Source: a virus
DNA: 64,000 nucleotides
Direction: 5' to 3' (one strand)
Virus record (IMG/VR): IMGVR_UViG_3300045988_076504
Location: 36,080 to 100,079 of that record
The notes under the pieces: generated by a model
What the model was told of the DNA's origin: nothing
Seen by the model: only the letters and a program-made list of their open reading frames with translations
Database searches by the model: none
Made by a program: the position numbers and the translations under genes
In this document: positions 35,396 to 61,569 of the stretch, one piece after another
How the letters are laid out: every line of letters starts with the position of its first letter
Position numbering within the stretch: position 1 is the stretch's first letter

Positions 35396-38300
35396 ATGGT
35401 ATGTTTAATTAAAAGTAAATATAAAGAAGAATTAGATTTATACACATAGTTGCTAGGCTCTGAAAAACGAGCCTACGCGATTTTGTGTTGTAATAACGGA
35501 TATACTCTAGACAAGACTAAAGATGGAAAACCATCTAAATTGTATAATGATTTGTTAGAGTATTATAAAGGAGATGTAACAAAAGCTGTGCAAAAGAAAG
35601 CATAGCTTTTTACATCTGAATTTACAAAAGATTACGGTCAATGGTACCAAGACGGATATGAAATATCTGACGAATATAAAGATGTATTTGATGAGAATGG
35701 AGAACCGCTGCTTAACGGCACACATTTTGGTACAGCAGATAATAAGATATTACTCGGCGGGCAGAAAAAATTTGCATCAATAGAAGAGGAGGAACAATAT
35801 ATATTAGAGCACGCTACACGTGATGAAAATGGAAAACTATTGGCACCTAATGGCAAACCTTCAAATCTTACAGAAAAACAATACGCTCAAGTGAGAACTA
35901 AAGCCTTTAAAGAGTGGTTTGGTGATTGGGAGAATGATCCAGAGAGTGCTTCTAAGGTAATAGATGAAAATGGAGAACCTTTGGTTGTTTATCATAATAC
36001 ACCATTTAAATTCAATGGTATATTTGATATGGATCATGTTTCAAGAATTATGCCGTAGATGTCAGAGCCATTTGGTCATGTAAGGACTAAAGAAACCGCC
36101 AATACTATAAAAGGTTCACAATACGCTCTTTTCCTCAATTTAAAAAATCCATTAGAAACTCCTGATTTTGTCCACGAATCTGTAAGTTCCATGTTATCCG
36201 AGCTGTATAAACAAGGTATCATTTCTAGAGAAAAATATTCTTCTCTCAGAGGAATATCTAATTCAGAATTAAGAAATTTGATGCTTTCTTTGGGATATGA
36301 TGGTACAAAATATGAAAATAAAGCAGAAAGAGGCGGGATTTCTTATAGTTTTATAACACCTAATCAAATTAAATCAGCAACAGACAACGTAGGTACATTC
36401 TCTAAAACTAACGATAATATATACAAAAGACGTGGTGAAAAGAGAGACAACCATATGTACAACAGGGAGCGTGCTGTAAAATATATTAAGGATCAAGGAT
36501 ACACAATAGACAATCTGGTTCATGACACATATGAGACAAGATTTGAAGTCACATTAAAAGCTAAAACTAAAGAAGACGTTTGGAGATCGTATATAAAGAA
36601 TATGGATCCTGCGTTAAAGGTTAAATATGCAGGAGTACGTATTGGTAAGAAAGACCCTAGACTTGAAGTTTAGATTAAAACCAAAGAAAGTGAGTCACTA
36701 ACTAATCTAAATCAGTTTCTTGATAAAAAATCTTTAAATACTGCGCAAGATCTTTTACAATATATTATAAAACAAACTAAAGACGAGAATAATCAGAATT
36801 TTTCTTTCATCCGTGCTGTATTAAAAGATATTAATAAAACTGTTCCCGAATTATTTAGTAATATCAATGTCAAAGTAATTGCCGATAACAATGGTAATTA
36901 TTCTGCGAAATATGACAATAATACAAAAACTATAATTATAAATAGTGCAAGATCGTTCGGCAACGAAAATAATTTCAACGATGAGTTAATACAGACATTG
37001 ACTCATGAAATGATACATGCTGTTACGGTGGAAGCGTTATAGAGATCTAAACAATTGCGTGAAAGAGCTGAAAGATTATTATCAGAGCTCAAAAAACAAT
37101 TTAACAATGATCCAGATATTCAAGGTATACAGGATGTGTACGAAATGGTTGCCGAATTAAGTAACGATGAATTTATCAAAAAATTGTAGTAGATACAATA
37201 TTCTACTGATGAAACATGGTTTGATAAGATAAGAAGATTTATATCTACTGTTATTCGTCACTATCTACGTAAAATAGGGCTACAATATAAAAATACCGCA
37301 TATTCAGAACTCGCTAATATTTTTGTACAATCTGCGTACGGTAAGAAAACCGGTTTATAGATGTCTGAAAACATAGATGAAAAGACGGTTTTTAATAGAA
37401 ACTCTAAAAAACGCATACAAGAAGCTAAAAAGAAAGTAAAAGCTAAACTGAAGGAAGGTATACATATTGTCGGAACACGTGATTCTACATAGAAGCTTAT
37501 AGACAAGTTGTCGCAGGATATAATATTAGGAACACGTAGTAAAAATAAAGCATATTCTTCTAAAAGAAACAGTAGTGTATCTTACGGAAATGAAAGGTAG
37601 ATTGCCAGAAACCAAGAAGCTGTAAATTTTGTAGACGAGCAAGCTAAAACTATAAACGAAGCTATAGCTGAGCGTGATGCAGAAAAACAATTAACCGAAC
37701 AAGCAAAACTTATACTCGATTTTATAGATCACGCTGATTCTGATATAAATGAAGTACTACAAATGCTTAAAAACGCATAGGATAACGACTACGATTTAAT
37801 ATATTATAATGTCGACCAATTTGGAAATAGATTGTATCAAGATCCGTCTGGCAATTCTATAACAGCTCAAACTGCAGGAAATAATACTATAGCCAAGTAG
37901 TTTTCATTCGATGATATACAATATATGACAACCGATATTTTAGGTTATTATCAAAAACTTCTAAGCGACATTGACAATATGTTATTGTAGGTACCAGTTG
38001 GCAAAAATGCAATTGTTGATGAAATTCGCGATCTTATGCAATCATTAAGACTACACGATCAACTTCGAGCTGCATCTAATATGAAACGACAAGCGCAAGA
38101 GAAAATGCTTGATTTTTATATAGATCAACGTATAAATCAACAAGAATCATCAGAACTTACTGATGAAATGAAACAGAGGTTGTCTATCAACATGAAAAAA
38201 TGGGTAAAATCCCAATATGATTTTGGAGATGTTGGAAGTTTCGCTGTATGGACGCAACTCATATCTGATTCAAAAAGTCCTATTGTGAGAATGATGGCAG

Positions 38301-42181: not shown

Positions 42182-42212
42182 AGGGTGGTAGTTATTTGCT
42201 AACTATCACCCT
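42182..42212. terminator. Shared hairpin terminator at the convergence of the late (+) and early (-) blocks
   Basis: A 13-bp stem, agggtggtagtta(42182-94)/taactatcaccct(42200-12). On the minus strand it is followed by CTTTTTTT (aaaaaaag 42174-81); on the plus strand by gtttt. The 3' arm and loop contain the last codons and the TAA of the minus gene 42192..42692. Confidence 0.75.
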
Positions 42213-45419: not shown

Positions 45420-45540
45420 TAAGAATGAGAGGACTCGAACCTCTTGATTATCCATATTGACAAGATTCGAACTTGCATACGTCAGCTTAATAGCTGATGC
45501 CTTACCTGTCGAGCCACAATATTGTATATATAAACATTCT
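45420..45540 (-). ncRNA. Composite tRNA-like element: an outer acceptor/T-arm minihelix enclosing a 72-nt cloverleaf-like core
   Basis: Minus strand: 5' AAGAATG (45540-34) pairs with CATTCTT (45427-21), next to the T-arm AGAGG-TTCGAGT-CCTCT (45444-28). The core at 45523-45452 has its own acceptor stem, D-arm and T-arm. Confidence 0.45.
45452..45523 (-). ncRNA. tRNA-shaped core lacking a 7-nt anticodon loop
   Basis: Acceptor (A)ATATTG/CAATAT(G). D-arm GCTC-GACAGGTA-AGGC. T-arm GCAAG-TTCGAAT-CTTGT. Variable loop 5 nt. The anticodon-position hairpin TCAGCT-ATTA-AGCTGA closes to a tetraloop. Confidence 0.45.
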
Positions 45541-52919: not shown

Positions 52920-52975
52920 TAAATAAAATAATAAAATGAAAACAAAATTAAAACACTCTTACGATTAAAATTTTG

Positions 52976-53059
52976 TACCTCCAGCGGGACTCGAACCCGC
53001 ACGTCACATGGGACAACAGATTTTAAGTCTGTAGCGGCTGCCAATTACGCCATGAAGGT
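52976..53059 (-). tRNA. tRNA-Leu(UAA), class II, 84 nt, CCA not encoded
   Basis: ACCTTCA-TG-GCGT-AATTGGCAG-CCGC-T-ACAGA-CTTAAAA-TCTGT-[TGTCCCATGTGACGT]-GCGGG-TTCGAGT-CCCGC-TGGAGGT-A. It has a 7-bp acceptor stem, GG in the D-loop, U33, A37 and a long variable arm. Confidence 0.85.
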
Positions 53060-53154: not shown

Positions 53155-53682
53155 CTACTCAAAGAAATCCACACCTTTGACTCCAACTCTGATTTCGCAC
53201 AGAGGATCGCCTGATCCCGGCAAGCGTGCGATTTTAATACCATCCTTGGATTCAATCTTAATGTGTTTATCTATTTTATCACTAACAGAGAAACCCGTTG
53301 TATTTAACGGGCTTTTGACTCCATACCTTGCGGCATCAAATAAACGATCTACTACAGTGTCATATTCTTCTCGCATTACAGCATTACGTATTACCTCCTC
53401 ACTCAAGCCTTTGAGTATCACATCGTTGATATTACGTTCCTGTCCTGCAAGAGCTGCAACTGTTTTAATAGCGAAGTCTGCAAAAGAAATAGTCTTTTCA
53501 TCTCCTATAAGATGATTCCACCAAAGACACCCTGTCTTTCCAAATGTGATAGAACCATCTTCATTAATGGATACGCGACTATATAATTCTTTCTTAGACT
53601 CGTCAATCAAATTCCGTCTGATTGCCGGATCCAAGAATAGAATTTGTATTTGCAGTTTACTTCTCTGACTAATCTTTTTCAT
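53155..53682 (-). CDS. Hypothetical protein (175 aa) that terminates at TAG
   Basis: Intact track ORF. The stop codon is TAG (cta at 53155-57). Confidence 0.6.
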   Translation of the reverse strand: MKKISQRSKLQIQILFLDPAIRRNLIDESKKELYSRVSINEDGSITFGKTGCLWWNHLIGDEKTISFADFAIKTVAALAGQERNINDVILKGLSEEVIRNAVMREEYDTVVDRLFDAARYGVKSPLNTTGFSVSDKIDKHIKIESKDGIKIARLPGSGDPLCEIRVGVKGVDFFE

Positions 53683-54290
53683 TAATCAACAGTTACATTT
53701 ACATGCACCTCGCTCTTCTTCTGGTCGAGCTGGCGATAATAATCGTTTACTCCGGATATATTCTTGTCGAATGTATCCTGAATCATCTTACGCATCTTCT
53801 CAAGATCCTTCGTGAGCTCGTCGATACGACGCATCTCAGTGGCGTTAGCAGGATTCAATGCCTCAGCAAGCTTCTTTGCATTTGCAAAATAAGTTACTGT
53901 AAAATCCTTCTTGTTAAGAGCGTCTGTCACAGTGTCTGTAGTGACATCCTTTGTGAACTTCTCACTGTCGATTGGACAACGAACCTCTACAGATTCGCCT
54001 GAATCATCGACACGACCCCTGTTGATAACCACAACATTGGTTCCGTCTACATCCTTATCCAAATCGAGACCGATAATGTCGATAGGTACTATCTTATATC
54101 GGAATGGTGTGCGGTTTGTTACTAATCCGTGATTCTCATTTGCATCGCGGAGCTTCTTGTTAAAATCAAGGTCACATGGTACCTTAATAGCCTTAAAGAT
54201 TCGCTTACCGTAAAGCGATCCAAAATTGCTGATATTTACTCTGTTGTCTTCTACAAGTCTTACATTGATGTTTAATGTTTCGTTATTCAT
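53682..54290 (-). CDS. Hypothetical protein (202 aa)
   Basis: Intact track ORF forming an ATGA-type junction with the downstream gene. Confidence 0.6.
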   Translation of the reverse strand: MNNETLNINVRLVEDNRVNISNFGSLYGKRIFKAIKVPCDLDFNKKLRDANENHGLVTNRTPFRYKIVPIDIIGLDLDKDVDGTNVVVINRGRVDDSGESVEVRCPIDSEKFTKDVTTDTVTDALNKKDFTVTYFANAKKLAEALNPANATEMRRIDELTKDLEKMRKMIQDTFDKNISGVNDYYRQLDQKKSEVHVNVTVD

Positions 54291-56291
54291 AATAATTTAT
54301 CCTTTTTGATATCGTGTTTGATTACACCCACGATAAATTATGTAAAAATTCTCCTCTCAGCTCAGAGAAAGCTATAAATGCATCGTTTGATGCTACTCAA
54401 GATTTATTTTATACAGTGTCAAGTTTCTTTATGACCGCTTTATAAGCGTAAGTCACTATATGTGGATTCCAACGATAGGAATAGCTTAGCCTCATATAGA
54501 TATATACGACAGACCCGGATCTCTCACGGAAAGCTTTGAATGACCGGTGTACATCATGTACTAAATCTTATAAGTAAAACTAAATTTTTTGAAATAAAGT
54601 TTATATTCATCATCCGTCCAACGCTCTAATGTTTCTGGAATCGTGGAGGGTTCATTGGCTGAGATGATGAATATTACCCACAAAAATAAAAAGTGAGAAT
54701 ATCTTCCTTGTGCATTTCCTAAAACTAAGAAAACATTCTCCGATGCTGTACAGTCTTACGATACTGTTTAGGCGCATCTGCCACTATTCTAAGTACTGTG
54801 TAGAATAATCAATACACGTTTCATTATCGAACAGTCTAGCCTTCAGGGGGTATCTACGACTCTACGGCGGTTATTCGATGGAAAACCTTGCTAAAAACCT
54901 TCTTCTATTTATAGTGCACGAATATTGGGGATTTCAGCCCCGTACATATGTATATGTTATCACCCACATATTATTTTCACGCCCTACAGAGACAGTGTAG
55001 ACCGTGGTGGGTTAAGTCTCCCACAGGCATACGCTTTACGCACTGCTAGTATGATTTCTCATTTTAATAATATGCTGCCTACTATATTTTCTGTACTGAT
55101 TCTACCTTTCGCTTGACGCATACACTTGCGGATGTATACTTTAGGCTGGTTATCATAACGGTTGGCACTCGAACTTTCAGACCTCGTTACTCCTTATTTA
55201 CAACATAAGTTTTTCACTATCTGAGGACATCGATTTTTGTTAAACATGTTACTTTAATACTTAATATGTAGTTTTGTTCCTACACCATAATATCAAAATT
55301 TTTCATATACATACTTATGCTCATAATATATGCACTATTATTATGTACAATAACTATCATTGTTCCTTTCGGTTCTTTTTCTCTGTATAGAGAATAATAG
55401 ATATTATATATTATATATGAACATGTGTATATTATTATTTGATATTTTTATTGGCATTGAGGTAATTGATTACAACTGGAATGCTGCTCTTATTTACTCA
55501 ATGTATGTTTTTAGAAAGCCCCTCAAAAACATTAAAACGGCTGGTTTGGCTGTCAAGTAGCCACCTATGATGTCATATTTCATATAATACTAAGATTGCT
55601 AATGTCTTGTACTATAATCCTGTCTTCAGTCCTATGAACGCCGACTCTAGAGGCTGTGCAGCTGCCATACGCACCTAGTCATTTTACTTTTATATACCGC
55701 ATAAACGACCAAAGCCTGGCGGTCTTATCTCATTATAAGCGAATAGTTTTCTCAGCCTCAACTCTTTACTGCATCCCTGGACCCTTCTTTGGCTCAAAAG
55801 GCTGCTGAATCGAACAGCACAGATTTATCCCTGGACACTACGTTTACTGCGTAGCTTGGTCTAACTGACAATAATATGATCTGACTCACATATTACCTAC
55901 CAAGTCCTTCTCTATTCTATCTTATACCCTAATAAAATTTTCATCCCTTCATACACAGTTTGGACCTGTGGAACACTAGATTAAGCAATGATGTATCACA
56001 TAGAGGTTGGAAGTCTATGTGTTCAGCACTTGTATACGGTTACCAATGTAATCCACATCAAAATTACAAAGAGTATTAGCTACCGGTTCATTTTGCTCTT
56101 CTTGAGACTTACGCGTCTTCCTAAGTCGTTATTCGCCAGACGGTTCTCAATAACGCTGTTGGGGTTGATACAACGCTCTCCCCACTTACATATTACTTTT
56201 CACATAATATGCATTTCATCCTACCTTTTGAGTTATCTCGCCTTTTGAGAAGGTTAACATATTCTCGGATCAAGTTTATTTCGTACACGAG
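54291..56291 (-). other. 2-kb ORF-free, hairpin-dense region: candidate large structured ncRNA(s) and/or replication origin
   Basis: All six frames carry frequent stops of all three kinds, so recoding does not rescue an ORF. There are many perfect 5-12 bp helices. An AT-rich spacer at ~55260-55500 splits it into two GC-richer halves. Confidence 0.5.
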
Positions 56292-56744
56292 CTAATGAGA
56301 CTCGTTATATGTACTGACGGAGGTGTCTTCGACTGAATGATCGTAATCATTCTCTCCCGGAGTGAATATCGTTTCGCAGTCTATGTCTTCAGGGCTAGCT
56401 TTCCTTACAACATATTTAGCTTGAGAATCACTGCAGGTTTGCTCCTCACGAACCTTTGATGAAGCAATATACAATATAGGTACATACAACGTATCATGTA
56501 CTGCATATGGTACTTTCACCACTTTTACATTCTCTTTATGGTTGCACACTTGTGATGTTGTCTCAGGATTGACAGGATCACGTTTCATATGACTCAGCTG
56601 GAGATCATATGGCAATTGCCCTATTACAGGCATCACTGGTGCAGCTTGTATAGTTACACCAGGATCTGCTCTATTGTTTATTCCTACTAATAGGCCGTAT
56701 AGTAGTAACATTGAGCATGAAATAATTGTTGTTAACTTTTTCAT
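56292..56744 (-). CDS. Secreted or membrane-anchored protein with an N-terminal signal/TM (150 aa) that terminates at TAG
   Basis: The N-terminus is MKKLTTIISCSMLLLYGLLVG. The stop codon is TAG (cta at 56292-94). The conserved ATTATCAAA-ATG leader lies upstream. Confidence 0.6.
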   Translation of the reverse strand: MKKLTTIISCSMLLLYGLLVGINNRADPGVTIQAAPVMPVIGQLPYDLQLSHMKRDPVNPETTSQVCNHKENVKVVKVPYAVHDTLYVPILYIASSKVREEQTCSDSQAKYVVRKASPEDIDCETIFTPGENDYDHSVEDTSVSTYNESH

Positions 56745-58605: not shown

Positions 58606-58977
58606 TCAAGACGAGTCAAAAATAAATGGAACTAATCCATCACCATAAAGAGGTGAGAAATTTTGTTCACCACTAAGAGTTGTAGATTCGGTGGTACAAT
58701 AATGTACAACCGGTGTTTCACAAGTAGGAACTACTTCTTCGGTGTTACTAGGTAACAGGAATTGAGCAGTGGGCATACTGCTGTTAAGTGTCAGATCCTG
58801 TGAAACACATTCTACGTTACTCTCCTTATTGTTTCCAATATTGGCTGCAATTGTACCGCCAATAAACCCGCTCATCATTGAGATAAGCAGAATCCAGAAT
58901 AATTTGTTACTCTTGTTGTATCGAGCAAGCAAGAATATAACAACTATTCCTACGAAGAATGTTAGAAGATTTAACAT
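58606..58977 (-). CDS. Two-TM membrane protein (123 aa) translationally coupled to the sigma factor gene
   Basis: Its start overlaps the sigma gene 3' end by 7 nt. TM segments are LLTFFVGIVVIFLL and WILLISMMSGFIGGTIAA. Confidence 0.55.
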   Translation of the reverse strand: MLNLLTFFVGIVVIFLLARYNKSNKLFWILLISMMSGFIGGTIAANIGNNKESNVECVSQDLTLNSSMPTAQFLLPSNTEEVVPTCETPVVHYCTTESTTLSGEQNFSPLYGDGLVPFIFDSS

Positions 58978-59531
58978 AGTTTCAGTTGTTTTTTTAGGTT
59001 ATTGCGAACTCTGTGTAGACATGACTTTATAGTTCCCACTGGCACATTTATCGCTTTACTTATTTGAGATACTGTCATACCATTTTCATAGTATAGTTTG
59101 ACAATTCTTTTGCTATGTTCTGGTAACTGATCGAATATTTCGACCATATTATCGTATGTCAGAGTAGTATTTTCATCTACAGTACTGGTAACATCTGATA
59201 ATTGTATACCTGATTCCTTGTCATCTATTGATATTGCTTTGTTTTTCAACGACCGCAAATAATCAATGGCAGTATTTTTTGTCATTATTCTCAACCATCC
59301 TCCGAATGAAGAATAGTCTGTGAATTTCGAGAGTTTTTGATATATTTTCAAGAATACAATGTTCGACAAGTCTTTAGCCTCATCATAATCATTTATATAC
59401 TGATATAAAAGATTTATTACAAAATCTTTATATTTATAATATATCAAATTGAATGCCGATTCTTTACCGGCTTTGGCATCTTTGATTATCCCAATTTCTT
59501 CTGGAGTAATTTTGGGTGTTTTCATAATCAA
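58971..59531 (-). CDS. ECF-type sigma-70 family sigma factor (186 aa)
   Basis: Region 2 reads AFNLIYYKYKDFVINLLYQY..DEAKDLSNIVFLKIYQKL...FGGWLRIMTKNTAIDYLR. Region 4 reads LPEHSKRIVKLYYENGMTVSQISKAINVPVGTIKSCLHRVRNNLKK. Confidence 0.75.
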   Translation of the reverse strand: MIMKTPKITPEEIGIIKDAKAGKESAFNLIYYKYKDFVINLLYQYINDYDEAKDLSNIVFLKIYQKLSKFTDYSSFGGWLRIMTKNTAIDYLRSLKNKAISIDDKESGIQLSDVTSTVDENTTLTYDNMVEIFDQLPEHSKRIVKLYYENGMTVSQISKAINVPVGTIKSCLHRVRNNLKKQLKLC

Positions 59532-60839: not shown

Positions 60840-61090
60840 TCCAACTGACTCAAGGAATTGTCAGGACTCATACTTACGCTACGTGAGTATAGTCAACAAT
60901 GTTATTGTTCTGATTTATCGAATTCTGAAATCTCGTATTTACTTCCTCTATCTGTCAAAACCAAACACGCCCTAATGAACAGTTTTACAACATGTTCAGG
61001 TTGTCCATCAATCGGGTGGTCACCAGAAAGTTGGCTGAAGACCGTGGACGTGGAGGGATTCGAACCCTCGTCCAAATAGATTAACTCATA
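60840..61090 (-). ncRNA. Candidate circularly permuted (two-piece) tmRNA-like element
   Basis: Upstream piece: CTATTT-GGAC-GAGGG-TTCGAAT-CCCTC-CACGTCC-A (61079-61045). After a 72-nt spacer comes GGGCGTG-TTTGGTTTTGAC-AGATAG (60972-60948). The acceptor pairing is 7 bp with G3.U70 and discriminator A73. There is no D-stem. AGATAG/CTATTT is a P2-like helix. Confidence 0.35.
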
Positions 61091-61569
61091 CTCAAACGAT
61101 TTCATTTTGTACTATGATGAATTGATCAGACCCATCATAGTTGTGTACATGTTAAATACTACAATCGTACATCAATTGGAATCATAAGATCAGCTGCTCT
61201 TAATCTCTCCGTATGACGTACAATTATAGTATTATATTAGTACATAAATATCTTAGTTGCAATAATGTCATGGTTCCAAGACTCTTAGACGTTGCAAACG
61301 TTAACACTTTGACAGTACATTTGGATGCTTTTAGTTCAACCGAACCTACTCACATACGACTCGATGGTTCACAAATGTTAATTGTTGATCTAGTGACCAT
61401 AGTTTATTCTCCCTGGTTGAGAGTTCTTTTCCCGCTGGCTCTAGGCTCTTTAAGCGTCAATGTCAATTCATCAATATTTCACCCATACTTTAACCGCATC
61501 GCGCCTTACAAAAGTCCAATGGGTATATAAAGTGACTGATTCGAGATTCTGCACTTTGGAAATAGTGGT

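Follow-up and report, generated by a model that had tools for sequence, protein, structure and literature searches.

A 2-kb covarying, non-coding locus conserved across Suoliviridae phages: candidate for a previously undescribed, very large structured RNA

The gap and its gene context

The 64,000-nucleotide (nt) stretch analyzed here, called the window below, spans positions 36,080 to 100,079 of the IMG/VR virus record IMGVR_UViG_3300045988_076504 and comes from a crAss-like phage, assigned by blastn to the “delta” group of subfamily Oafivirinae, family Suoliviridae. Suoliviridae/crAss-like phages rank among the most abundant viruses known from the human body. Between two genes of this phage lies a 2-kb gap (54291–56291), which an initial annotation drawn from the letters alone had offered as a candidate giant structured RNA (or RNAs) or, alternatively, as an origin of replication. 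We report that the gap is non-coding, that it recurs throughout the family, and that covariation of paired bases, in minus-sense RNA, runs over its whole length. We consider it probable that the gap holds a previously undescribed, very large (2.0–2.5 kb), multi-domain structured non-coding RNA (ncRNA) characteristic of Suoliviridae.

Genes in the window lie on the plus strand at 1–42136 and on the minus strand from 42192 onward, and the gap falls in the minus-strand block, co-directional with its flanking genes. Read in that direction, the order is a sigma-70-family protein, open reading frames (ORFs) of 123, 477, and 150 amino acids (aa), the gap, ORFs of 202 and 175 aa, a transfer RNA gene (tRNA-Leu), two further ORFs, and a DNA polymerase; the gap belongs to the replication module and lies ~3 kb upstream of the polymerase gene. 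The tRNA-Leu gene (52975–53059) lies 1.2 kb downstream of the gap, in keeping with the remark of the initial annotation that tRNA genes are near. When ten neighboring proteins were compared with PHROGs, Pfam, and PDB sequences, only the sigma-70-family protein and the DNA polymerase were recognized. The upstream flanking ORF (Table 1) has a syntenic counterpart of 131–152 aa in the homologous loci whose right flank was captured.

No reading frame accounts for the gap. Its longest ORF reaches 86–87 aa, on the plus strand, and the mixture of TAA, TGA, and TAG stops noticed earlier is real: each of the six frames holds 7–23 copies of each stop codon. The view that recoding could not rescue a gene also held, as reading TAG, TGA, or TAA as sense raises the maximum only to 112–122 aa, again on the plus strand, with 87 aa the longest minus-strand ORF listed when TAG is sense. 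In an alignment of homologs (n=27, median pairwise identity 56%), column conservation across the gap lacks 3-base periodicity (power ratio 1.6–3.5), whereas the adjacent 202-aa coding sequence gives a period-3 power ratio of 67 in the same genomes. A coding explanation of the gap is excluded. The gap was also said to be less AT-rich than the flanking genes; its GC content of 0.366 does exceed, marginally, the 0.33–0.35 of most of the window, but the immediate flanks lie at 0.37–0.44.

Public annotations nevertheless place ORFs in homologous gaps (e.g., L003 3473–3955, L006 3837–4343, and L007 3167–5175). Those in GenBank are short, lie on either strand, and are not common to different records; in cr7_1 a plus-strand ORF drawn over the gap contains two stop codons under code 11, and in Dulem virus 42 the gap is covered by 13 ORFs of 31–102 aa on both strands. 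The ORFs annotated over the locus look like annotation artefacts: in current genome records the gap is occupied by small, spurious ORFs or by one interrupted by stop codons.

Conservation and covariation across Suoliviridae

An unannotated gap of 2.0–2.2 kb with the same gene order occurs in eight annotated Oafivirinae-type genomes, and a syntenic gap is also found in cr4_1 (Loutivirinae; 2.1 kb) and cr50_1 (Boorivirinae; ~2.5 kb). The flanking protein is too divergent to reach distant relatives, and a DNA pattern from the RNA itself was used instead. Specifically, IMG/VR was scanned with a 17-mer from the gap, drawn from the region of a conserved 14-mer, which gave at least 120 contigs. A nucleotide profile (nhmmer) then matched 111 loci, annotated reference loci included, 45 of them at full length. 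Matches in 42 distinct distant gaps follow one collinear order between the 5′ core and the 3′ hairpin; the 5′ core (56110–56290) is found in nearly all of these and the block 54904–55255 in ~25. The 3′-terminal hairpin was recovered by nhmmer in Boorivirinae-type loci as well. Locus length varies little (1954–2198 nt; 27 representatives). While proteins neighboring the gap are only 26–45% identical between these genomes, the RNA retains many invariant stretches, and the 202-aa ORF shows this directly, with 26–45% identity between genomes whose RNA blocks are 70–80% identical. Every member examined spends ~2% of its genome on an RNA that is more conserved than the adjacent proteins.

Lineage-specific hairpins are inserted at fixed points of the alignments (A3 columns 620–700 and 440–465; A2 columns 150–190). 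One example, a 45–100-nt module with the motif ACAUGGUAUGG, occurs in many Oafivirinae and is absent from the window. These insertions recall the expansion segments of ribosomal RNA (rRNA).

The locus also surfaced in bacterial assemblies. Among species-representative assemblies (one genome per species) the core motif appears only 4 times (L135, L136, L137, and L138), on contigs binned with metagenome-assembled genomes (MAGs) of Segatella copri, Prevotella, or Bacteroidaceae; L135 and L137 are ~101 kb long, the size of a phage genome. This is a sign of phage genomes binned into MAGs, and the bins give a weak hint at a Segatella/Prevotella-type host.

Covariation was measured against two controls: a slid control, in which the 3′ partner was shifted by 1–3 columns, and a shuffle control (n=500) scored on five measures. 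For the 5′ segment (window 55651–56371, minus sense, ~720 nt, 27 sequences), the RNAalifold consensus comprises 70 pairs in 15 helices, 51 of which carry compensatory double changes. Paired bases fill 91.3% of the cells in this segment (33–43% when slid), and 375 cells show double changes (43–89 when slid); on four of the measures not one of the 500 shuffles equaled the real alignment, and on the fifth, further pair types, 7 did. The 3′ segment (54211–55650, 1.44 kb), aligned for 14 diverse sequences, yields 65 pairs in 14 helices with 94.3% of cells paired (32–44% when slid) and compensatory changes at 37 of the 65 pairs (5–16 when slid), and not one of the 500 shuffles matched any of the five measures. 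Over the whole locus this amounts to 135 conservative consensus pairs, of which 88 show compensatory changes.

The 5′ core was further captured in a covariance model, R1 (56091–56312; 225 positions, 34 pairs), which in a cmsearch of 91 sources found 82 matches, one per locus, at E-values of 1e-60 to 7e-7. Across 63 distinct sequences 91.7% of cells are paired (33–46% when slid), 495 cells show double changes (66–141 when slid), and 29 of the 34 pairs are compensatory, figures that come from an alignment fitted to the model and hence biased towards structure.

These alignments also reveal the sense of the RNA. Several conserved G.U pairs occur in minus sense (e.g., one position is U.G in 24 of the 27 sequences and three others in 21–22), and because a plus-strand reading would turn them into C-A mismatches, the RNA is minus-sense, the same strand as the flanking genes. 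In 16 helices defined by a strand-symmetric rule, G.U outnumbers A.C by 74 to 28, and for each segment the consensus folded in minus sense gives more pairs at a lower energy.

Covariation across homologous metagenomic loci was one of the checks by which the initial annotation had suggested judging its proposal, and compensatory changes stand well above both slid and shuffled controls. Family-wide conservation, together with strong covariation over the full 2 kb, supports the candidate structured RNA it described, and we regard it as very likely that the gap encodes a functional structured RNA.

Architecture of the RNA and competing interpretations

Read in the 5′-to-3′ direction of its minus-sense RNA, the locus runs from a hairpin over the stop of the upstream ORF to a hairpin ending 4 nt before AAAAAGGA of the downstream ORF, ~20 nt before the ATG of that 202-aa ORF (Table 1). 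The loop of the first hairpin, UCUCAUUAG, holds the TAG stop (56292–56294) of the upstream 150-aa ORF. The 5′ core also contains a CUC/GAG hairpin; a helix that would close the core (CUUG/CAAG) was left open in the model, being only 80% paired with many gaps. Among the short hairpins of 55837–55970, which carry 2–5 covarying pairs each, the helix 55855-50/55842-37 counts 38 G.U against 0 A.C. In the AT-rich center, the outer and inner helices consist of 9 bp and 8 bp, with 7 covarying pairs in each. The helix AGUGC/GCACU that closes the ~250-nt domain has 5 bp, 3 of them covarying, with no G.U or A.C, and the helices of this domain, which nhmmer found in ~25 distant loci, are 88–99% paired.

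Table 1. Features of the RNA locus and its flanking genes, in window coordinates.
Feature	Position	Strand	Description
Upstream flanking ORF	56292..56744	-	150 aa; hydrophobic N-terminus; no known family
Whole structured non-coding RNA locus	54295..56312	-	~2.0 kb; ORF-free, non-periodic, covarying
5′ core domain	56091..56312	-	most widely conserved part; modeled as R1
First hairpin	56287..56305	-	6 pairs, 5 compensatory, 94% paired; invariant loop UCUCAUUAG
Helix AUCC/GGAU	56270-56267 with 56221-56218	-	98% paired; 4/4 pairs covary
Hairpin CCUU/AAGG	56253-56250 with 56244-56241	-	inside the AUCC/GGAU helix; covarying
Stem around UGAGAACCGUCUGG	56152-56149 with 56133-56130	-	3–4 covarying pairs
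Near-invariant 14-mer UGAGAACCGUCUGG	56136..56149	-	13/14 positions invariant; C/U at position 11
Short hairpin run	55837..55970	-	55855-50/55842-37; 55893-89/55860-56; 55970-66/55958-54 nested in 55980-78/55946-44
T-loop-like hairpin	55803..55819	-	5-bp stem, 7-nt loop UUCGAUU; 5/5 pairs compensatory, 95% paired
Near-invariant 48-nt block GACCGCCAGGCUUUGGUCGUUUAUGCGGUAUAUAAAAGUAAAAUGACC	55678..55725	-	helix 55709-04/55683-78, 97% paired
AT-rich center	55305..55435	-	nested A-U-rich helices 55435-27/55312-05 and 55398-91/55344-37
~250-nt domain	54913..55169	-	closed by AGUGC (55169-65) / GCACU (54917-13); nested helices and the GGGG/CCCC hairpin
12-bp helix	54603..54674	-	exact inverted repeat; encloses conserved CUCAGC...AACCCUCC(A/G)CGA(U/A)UCC element
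3′-terminal hairpin	54295..54338	-	AUCGUG...CACGAU extended; 7–9 bp, 99% paired, 5–6 covarying pairs
A-rich, ribosome-binding-site (RBS)-like stretch AAAAAGGA	54303-54310	-	precedes the downstream 202-aa ORF
Downstream flanking ORF	53682..54290	-	202 aa; no known family

The initial annotation had called the region packed with perfect helices and listed five, all of which are present in the sequence. The 8-bp (55997–56004/56014–21) and 6-bp (56106–11/56122–27) helices stand as given, and the GGGG-7-CCCC hairpin (54927–41) is kept in homologs with compensatory changes. The 12-bp helix is there with its second arm shifted by one base (the real pairing is 54603–14/54663–74), and L008, L010, the L006 group, L082, and L123 preserve the pairing through compensatory changes although their sequences differ. 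A 10-bp long-range pairing (55793–802/56240–49) exists in the sequence but in no consensus fold, its 3′ partner (56241–56253) forming a local covarying hairpin instead. Similarly, the supposed AT-rich spacer at 55260–55500 has the AT-rich runs (GC 0.26) but is no spacer, as covarying A-U-rich helices form there. A second long-range helix, proposed by RNAalifold between 56275–56267 and ~55790–55782, was rejected: a local helix with 4/4 covarying pairs fits the same bases better.

In the first hairpin the coding 5′ arm covaries with the non-coding 3′ arm. The loop carries the stop as UAG in the window but as UAA in L001 and L043; a conserved Ser-His forms the end of the 150-aa protein.

Rfam 15 gave no match in the gap at gathering thresholds, nor at E≤10 with permissive filters, in a search that covers GOLLD, ROOL, HEARO, OLE, raiA, group I/II introns, RNase P, Y RNA, and rRNAs; the families to which the initial annotation had pointed (GOLLD, ROOL, group II introns, HEARO) were thus not recovered. 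ARAGORN called no tRNA or transfer-messenger RNA (tmRNA) within the gap. The searchable literature, in which most subscription-journal papers are not covered, contains no description of such an RNA in crAss-like phages or Suoliviridae; Yutin 2021 refers only in general terms to non-coding regions, chiefly those of the Zeta group. Given no Rfam 15 match and no literature description, we treat the RNA as a new family.

Among other large RNAs, the locus resembles GOLLD (RF01998) in being very large, ornate, multi-domain, phage- or prophage-borne, and near tRNA genes, and in being recognized through conservation and covariation rather than function. However, it has no RF01998 match, is ~2.5 times longer (2.0–2.5 kb vs. 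~0.8 kb), and resides in crAss-like phages of Bacteroidota, where it is embedded among the protein genes of an operon and lacks a separate terminator. With ROOL (RF03087; ~0.6 kb) it shares the character of a large structured RNA of gut or rumen metagenomes, often found in prophage-like contexts near tRNAs, but no RF03087 match and no similarity of sequence or structure was detected. The large ornate phage-borne ncRNAs are the nearest known kind, and the locus stands apart from them in lacking homology to them, in exceeding GOLLD ~2.5-fold in length, in its place within an operon, and in being a fixed, family-wide feature. GOLLD, at ~800 nt, is the largest structured phage RNA known to us, and the present RNA would be larger if it is one molecule.

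How might such an RNA work? It would be read from the minus strand within an early/middle (replication-module) transcription unit, the same one that carries the phage sigma factor, tRNA, tmRNA, and DNA polymerase. Sigma-70-like promoters are not enriched in the gap, no intrinsic terminator was found there on either strand, and no conserved Bacteroidetes -7 motif (TAnnTTTG) occurs on its RNA strand; from these negative results we infer read-through transcription within the operon. The transcript is expected to form no fewer than eight domains, each closed on its own, in which many loops and junctions are invariant, and a stable RNA, or a few large pieces, would probably be released by processing between the two terminal hairpins. 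By analogy with GOLLD and ROOL it may then act in trans, as RNA or as a ribonucleoprotein (RNP), in the infected cell, a function that is a guess from those likenesses. ROOL, GOLLD, and OLE form homo-oligomeric RNA-only complexes, as seen by cryo-EM (PMC12286853), which suggests one testable model for the gap RNA.

Constant order and length, a single core match per locus, and the lack of internal promoters or terminators speak for one unit, and that the gap RNA is one giant molecule is a real possibility that we put somewhat short of even. More tentative is the fullest version of this proposal, in which a single stable RNA of 2.0–2.5 kb forms a defined three-dimensional particle (RNA-only or with phage or host proteins) that performs a phage-specific task in infected Prevotella/Segatella-type hosts—a task possibly linked to the nearby tRNA and tmRNA and to the early-to-late switch to TAG-recoded genes.

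Several observations weigh against a single large functional RNA. Single-sequence folding is unremarkable, with a minimum-free-energy z of -1.3 per half and a hairpin density not beyond chance, and the structure is judged real because of the comparison of homologs, not because of such folds. The first hairpin overlaps the last codons of the upstream ORF and is missing in Boorivirinae-type matches, which begin at R1 position 42–44, making the 5′ boundary uncertain. No partner protein was identified, and the 477-aa neighbor has no structural match. Moreover, no well-supported helix in the consensus folds joins the 5′ and 3′ halves, and the longest well-supported closures span about 100–350 nt; on both counts the locus could comprise several separate RNAs.

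Such a head-to-tail cluster of independent, structured small or medium RNAs, each of a few hundred nt, is unlikely in our estimate, though it is one of the two main rivals of the preferred reading. It fits a modular architecture in which every well-supported closing helix spans at most ~350 nt and no covarying helix links the halves, and it fits the distant subfamilies, where the 5′ core, 54904–55255, and the 3′ hairpin are kept much better than other blocks. Yet the modules are not set apart by any conserved promoter motif or terminator between them, their order, spacing, and total length are constant across subfamilies, and no module was found alone elsewhere, the core occurring once per locus.

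Alternatively, the RNA may be a giant cis-acting intercistronic spacer in a polycistronic mRNA that controls processing, stability, or translation (e.g., by breaking the coupling between the 150-aa and 202-aa ORFs) and has no role in trans. We give this a slim chance. The position within an operon of co-directional genes, where the gap has neither a promoter nor a terminator to itself, would suit it, as would the first hairpin holding the upstream stop and the last ending so close to AAAAAGGA. However, both of the genes under its supposed control are much less conserved than the RNA, and 2 kb with >130 conserved pairs and many invariant loops far exceeds what any cis-regulatory leader known to us requires.

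The alternative raised at the outset, that the AT-rich center is an origin, fared poorly. No iterons or direct-repeat arrays occur in the gap, and cumulative GC skew turns only once within the window, not at the gap but at 42198, the meeting point of the two convergent gene blocks. Nor is the AT-richness kept in homologs: GC of the center ranges over 0.22–0.39, with 0.22–0.24 in this phage and its closest relatives and 0.28–0.39 in most other lineages. The conserved G.U pairs, moreover, show that selection acts on the RNA. With no repeat arrays, skew switch, or conserved AT-richness, an origin of replication is unsupported. A more elaborate form, in which a structured transcript primes DNA synthesis through an R-loop, would draw on the likeness to ColE1 RNA II and the T4/T7 origin transcripts as structured transcripts inside a replication region. 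The replication module, the DNA polymerase gene ~3 kb away, the AT-rich center in this genome, and an RNA structure compatible with a pre-primer are in its favor, but the same lack of repeats and of a local skew switch counts against it, the center forms covarying helices, and there is no conserved AT-rich unwinding element. The gap RNA is several times longer than RNA II, and pre-primer RNAs known to us are far shorter. We consider this version very improbable.

A degenerate or divergent self-splicing intron, or another mobile RNA element between two genes, is given almost no credence. Its size would be compatible with an ORF-less intron plus relics, and delta-group crAss-like phages carry many group I introns (PMC7886860). 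Like group II introns, the locus is a kilobase-scale RNA with several independently folded domains. On the contrary side, neither group I (RF00028) nor group II models (Intron_gpII, group-II-D1D4) match in the gap at E≤10, no domain V/VI is seen, and no intron-encoded protein, homing endonuclease, or reverse transcriptase was found among the neighboring genes searched. The bases that follow the upstream stop vary (GUACGA, GGAACG, GAGAUG) and depart from the group II 5′ consensus GUGYG. The flanking ORFs are two complete, separate, conserved proteins with their own stop and their own RBS-like stretch and ATG, rather than exons of one interrupted gene. The locus occupies one fixed site in every genome examined, across three subfamilies, with no copy found elsewhere and no sign of mobility.

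The preferred reading of a very large, multi-domain ncRNA draws its interest from scale: at 2 kb, with >130 conserved pairs and many invariant loops, the locus has the dimensions of a ribosomal, not a regulatory, RNA, and this rRNA-like scale of structure points to an undescribed RNA-based machine or scaffold. A family-wide alignment, a working covariance model, the strand, and approximate ends are now available.

Neighboring genes, a crAss001 locus, and recoding

A Ro60/Y-RNA reading of the gap was prompted by crAss001 (Steigviridae). There, Gp96, annotated as an “RNA-binding protein,” is a Ro60/TROVE protein (Pfam 5.5e-13) with a Ro60 vWA domain, and the largest unannotated gap of the genome (905 nt; L134 43286–44190, NC_049977 95965–96869) lies just downstream and holds a 144-nt tRNA-like match (46.6 bits). 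This pair looks like a phage Ro60/Y-RNA (YrlA-type) module. The two loci are alike in that each gap sits in a leftward early operon, just downstream of a ~475-aa protein. A Ro60/Y-RNA assignment for the window was nonetheless rejected, because BLASTP, Pfam, and fold comparison all failed to relate its 477-aa protein to Ro60. Specifically, Pfam returned no TROVE or other match for this protein and 17 aligned homologs, and its AlphaFold2 (AF2) model (pLDDT 74, pTM 0.70, all-alpha) had no significant match in PDB, with a best Foldseek E-value of 0.11 and TM ≤0.17. Rfam and ARAGORN found no tRNA-like or Y_RNA match in the window gap, and R1 scored nothing in crAss001 (best 8.6 bits). With no protein similarity and no R1 match, the two loci are at most analogous.

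The sigma-70-family protein is a phage sigma-70/ECF-type sigma factor (58971–59531, minus strand) with regions 2 and 4 (E-values 3e-13 and 8e-10). It heads the same minus-strand gene run as the gap, a position kept in all Suoliviridae loci examined, and it could direct transcription of the RNA-containing operon. A permuted (two-piece) tmRNA lies at 60874–61104 (minus strand; Rfam RF04321, 57.5 bits against a gathering score of 47), where ARAGORN made no call; in the Boorivirinae genome cr50_1 an annotated tmRNA is likewise upstream of the sigma factor.

The late plus-strand block (1–42136), with structural and virion RNA polymerase genes, is TAG-recoded, while the early minus-strand block is on the standard code. 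Reading TAG as sense raises the coverage of the plus-strand block by stop-to-stop ORFs of ≥150 aa from 0.50 to 0.98, and ORFs of 4276, 2249, and 1740 aa emerge; in the minus-strand block (42192–64000) the same change moves coverage only from 0.70 to 0.71. Reassignment of TGA has no effect on ORF coverage of the window. A tRNA-like gene at 45452–45523 (minus strand; Rfam 36.6 bits, no ARAGORN call) has, by eye, the anticodon arm UCAGC-UAUUAA-GCUGA with a 6-nt loop, and given the TAG recoding it is a possible suppressor tRNA.

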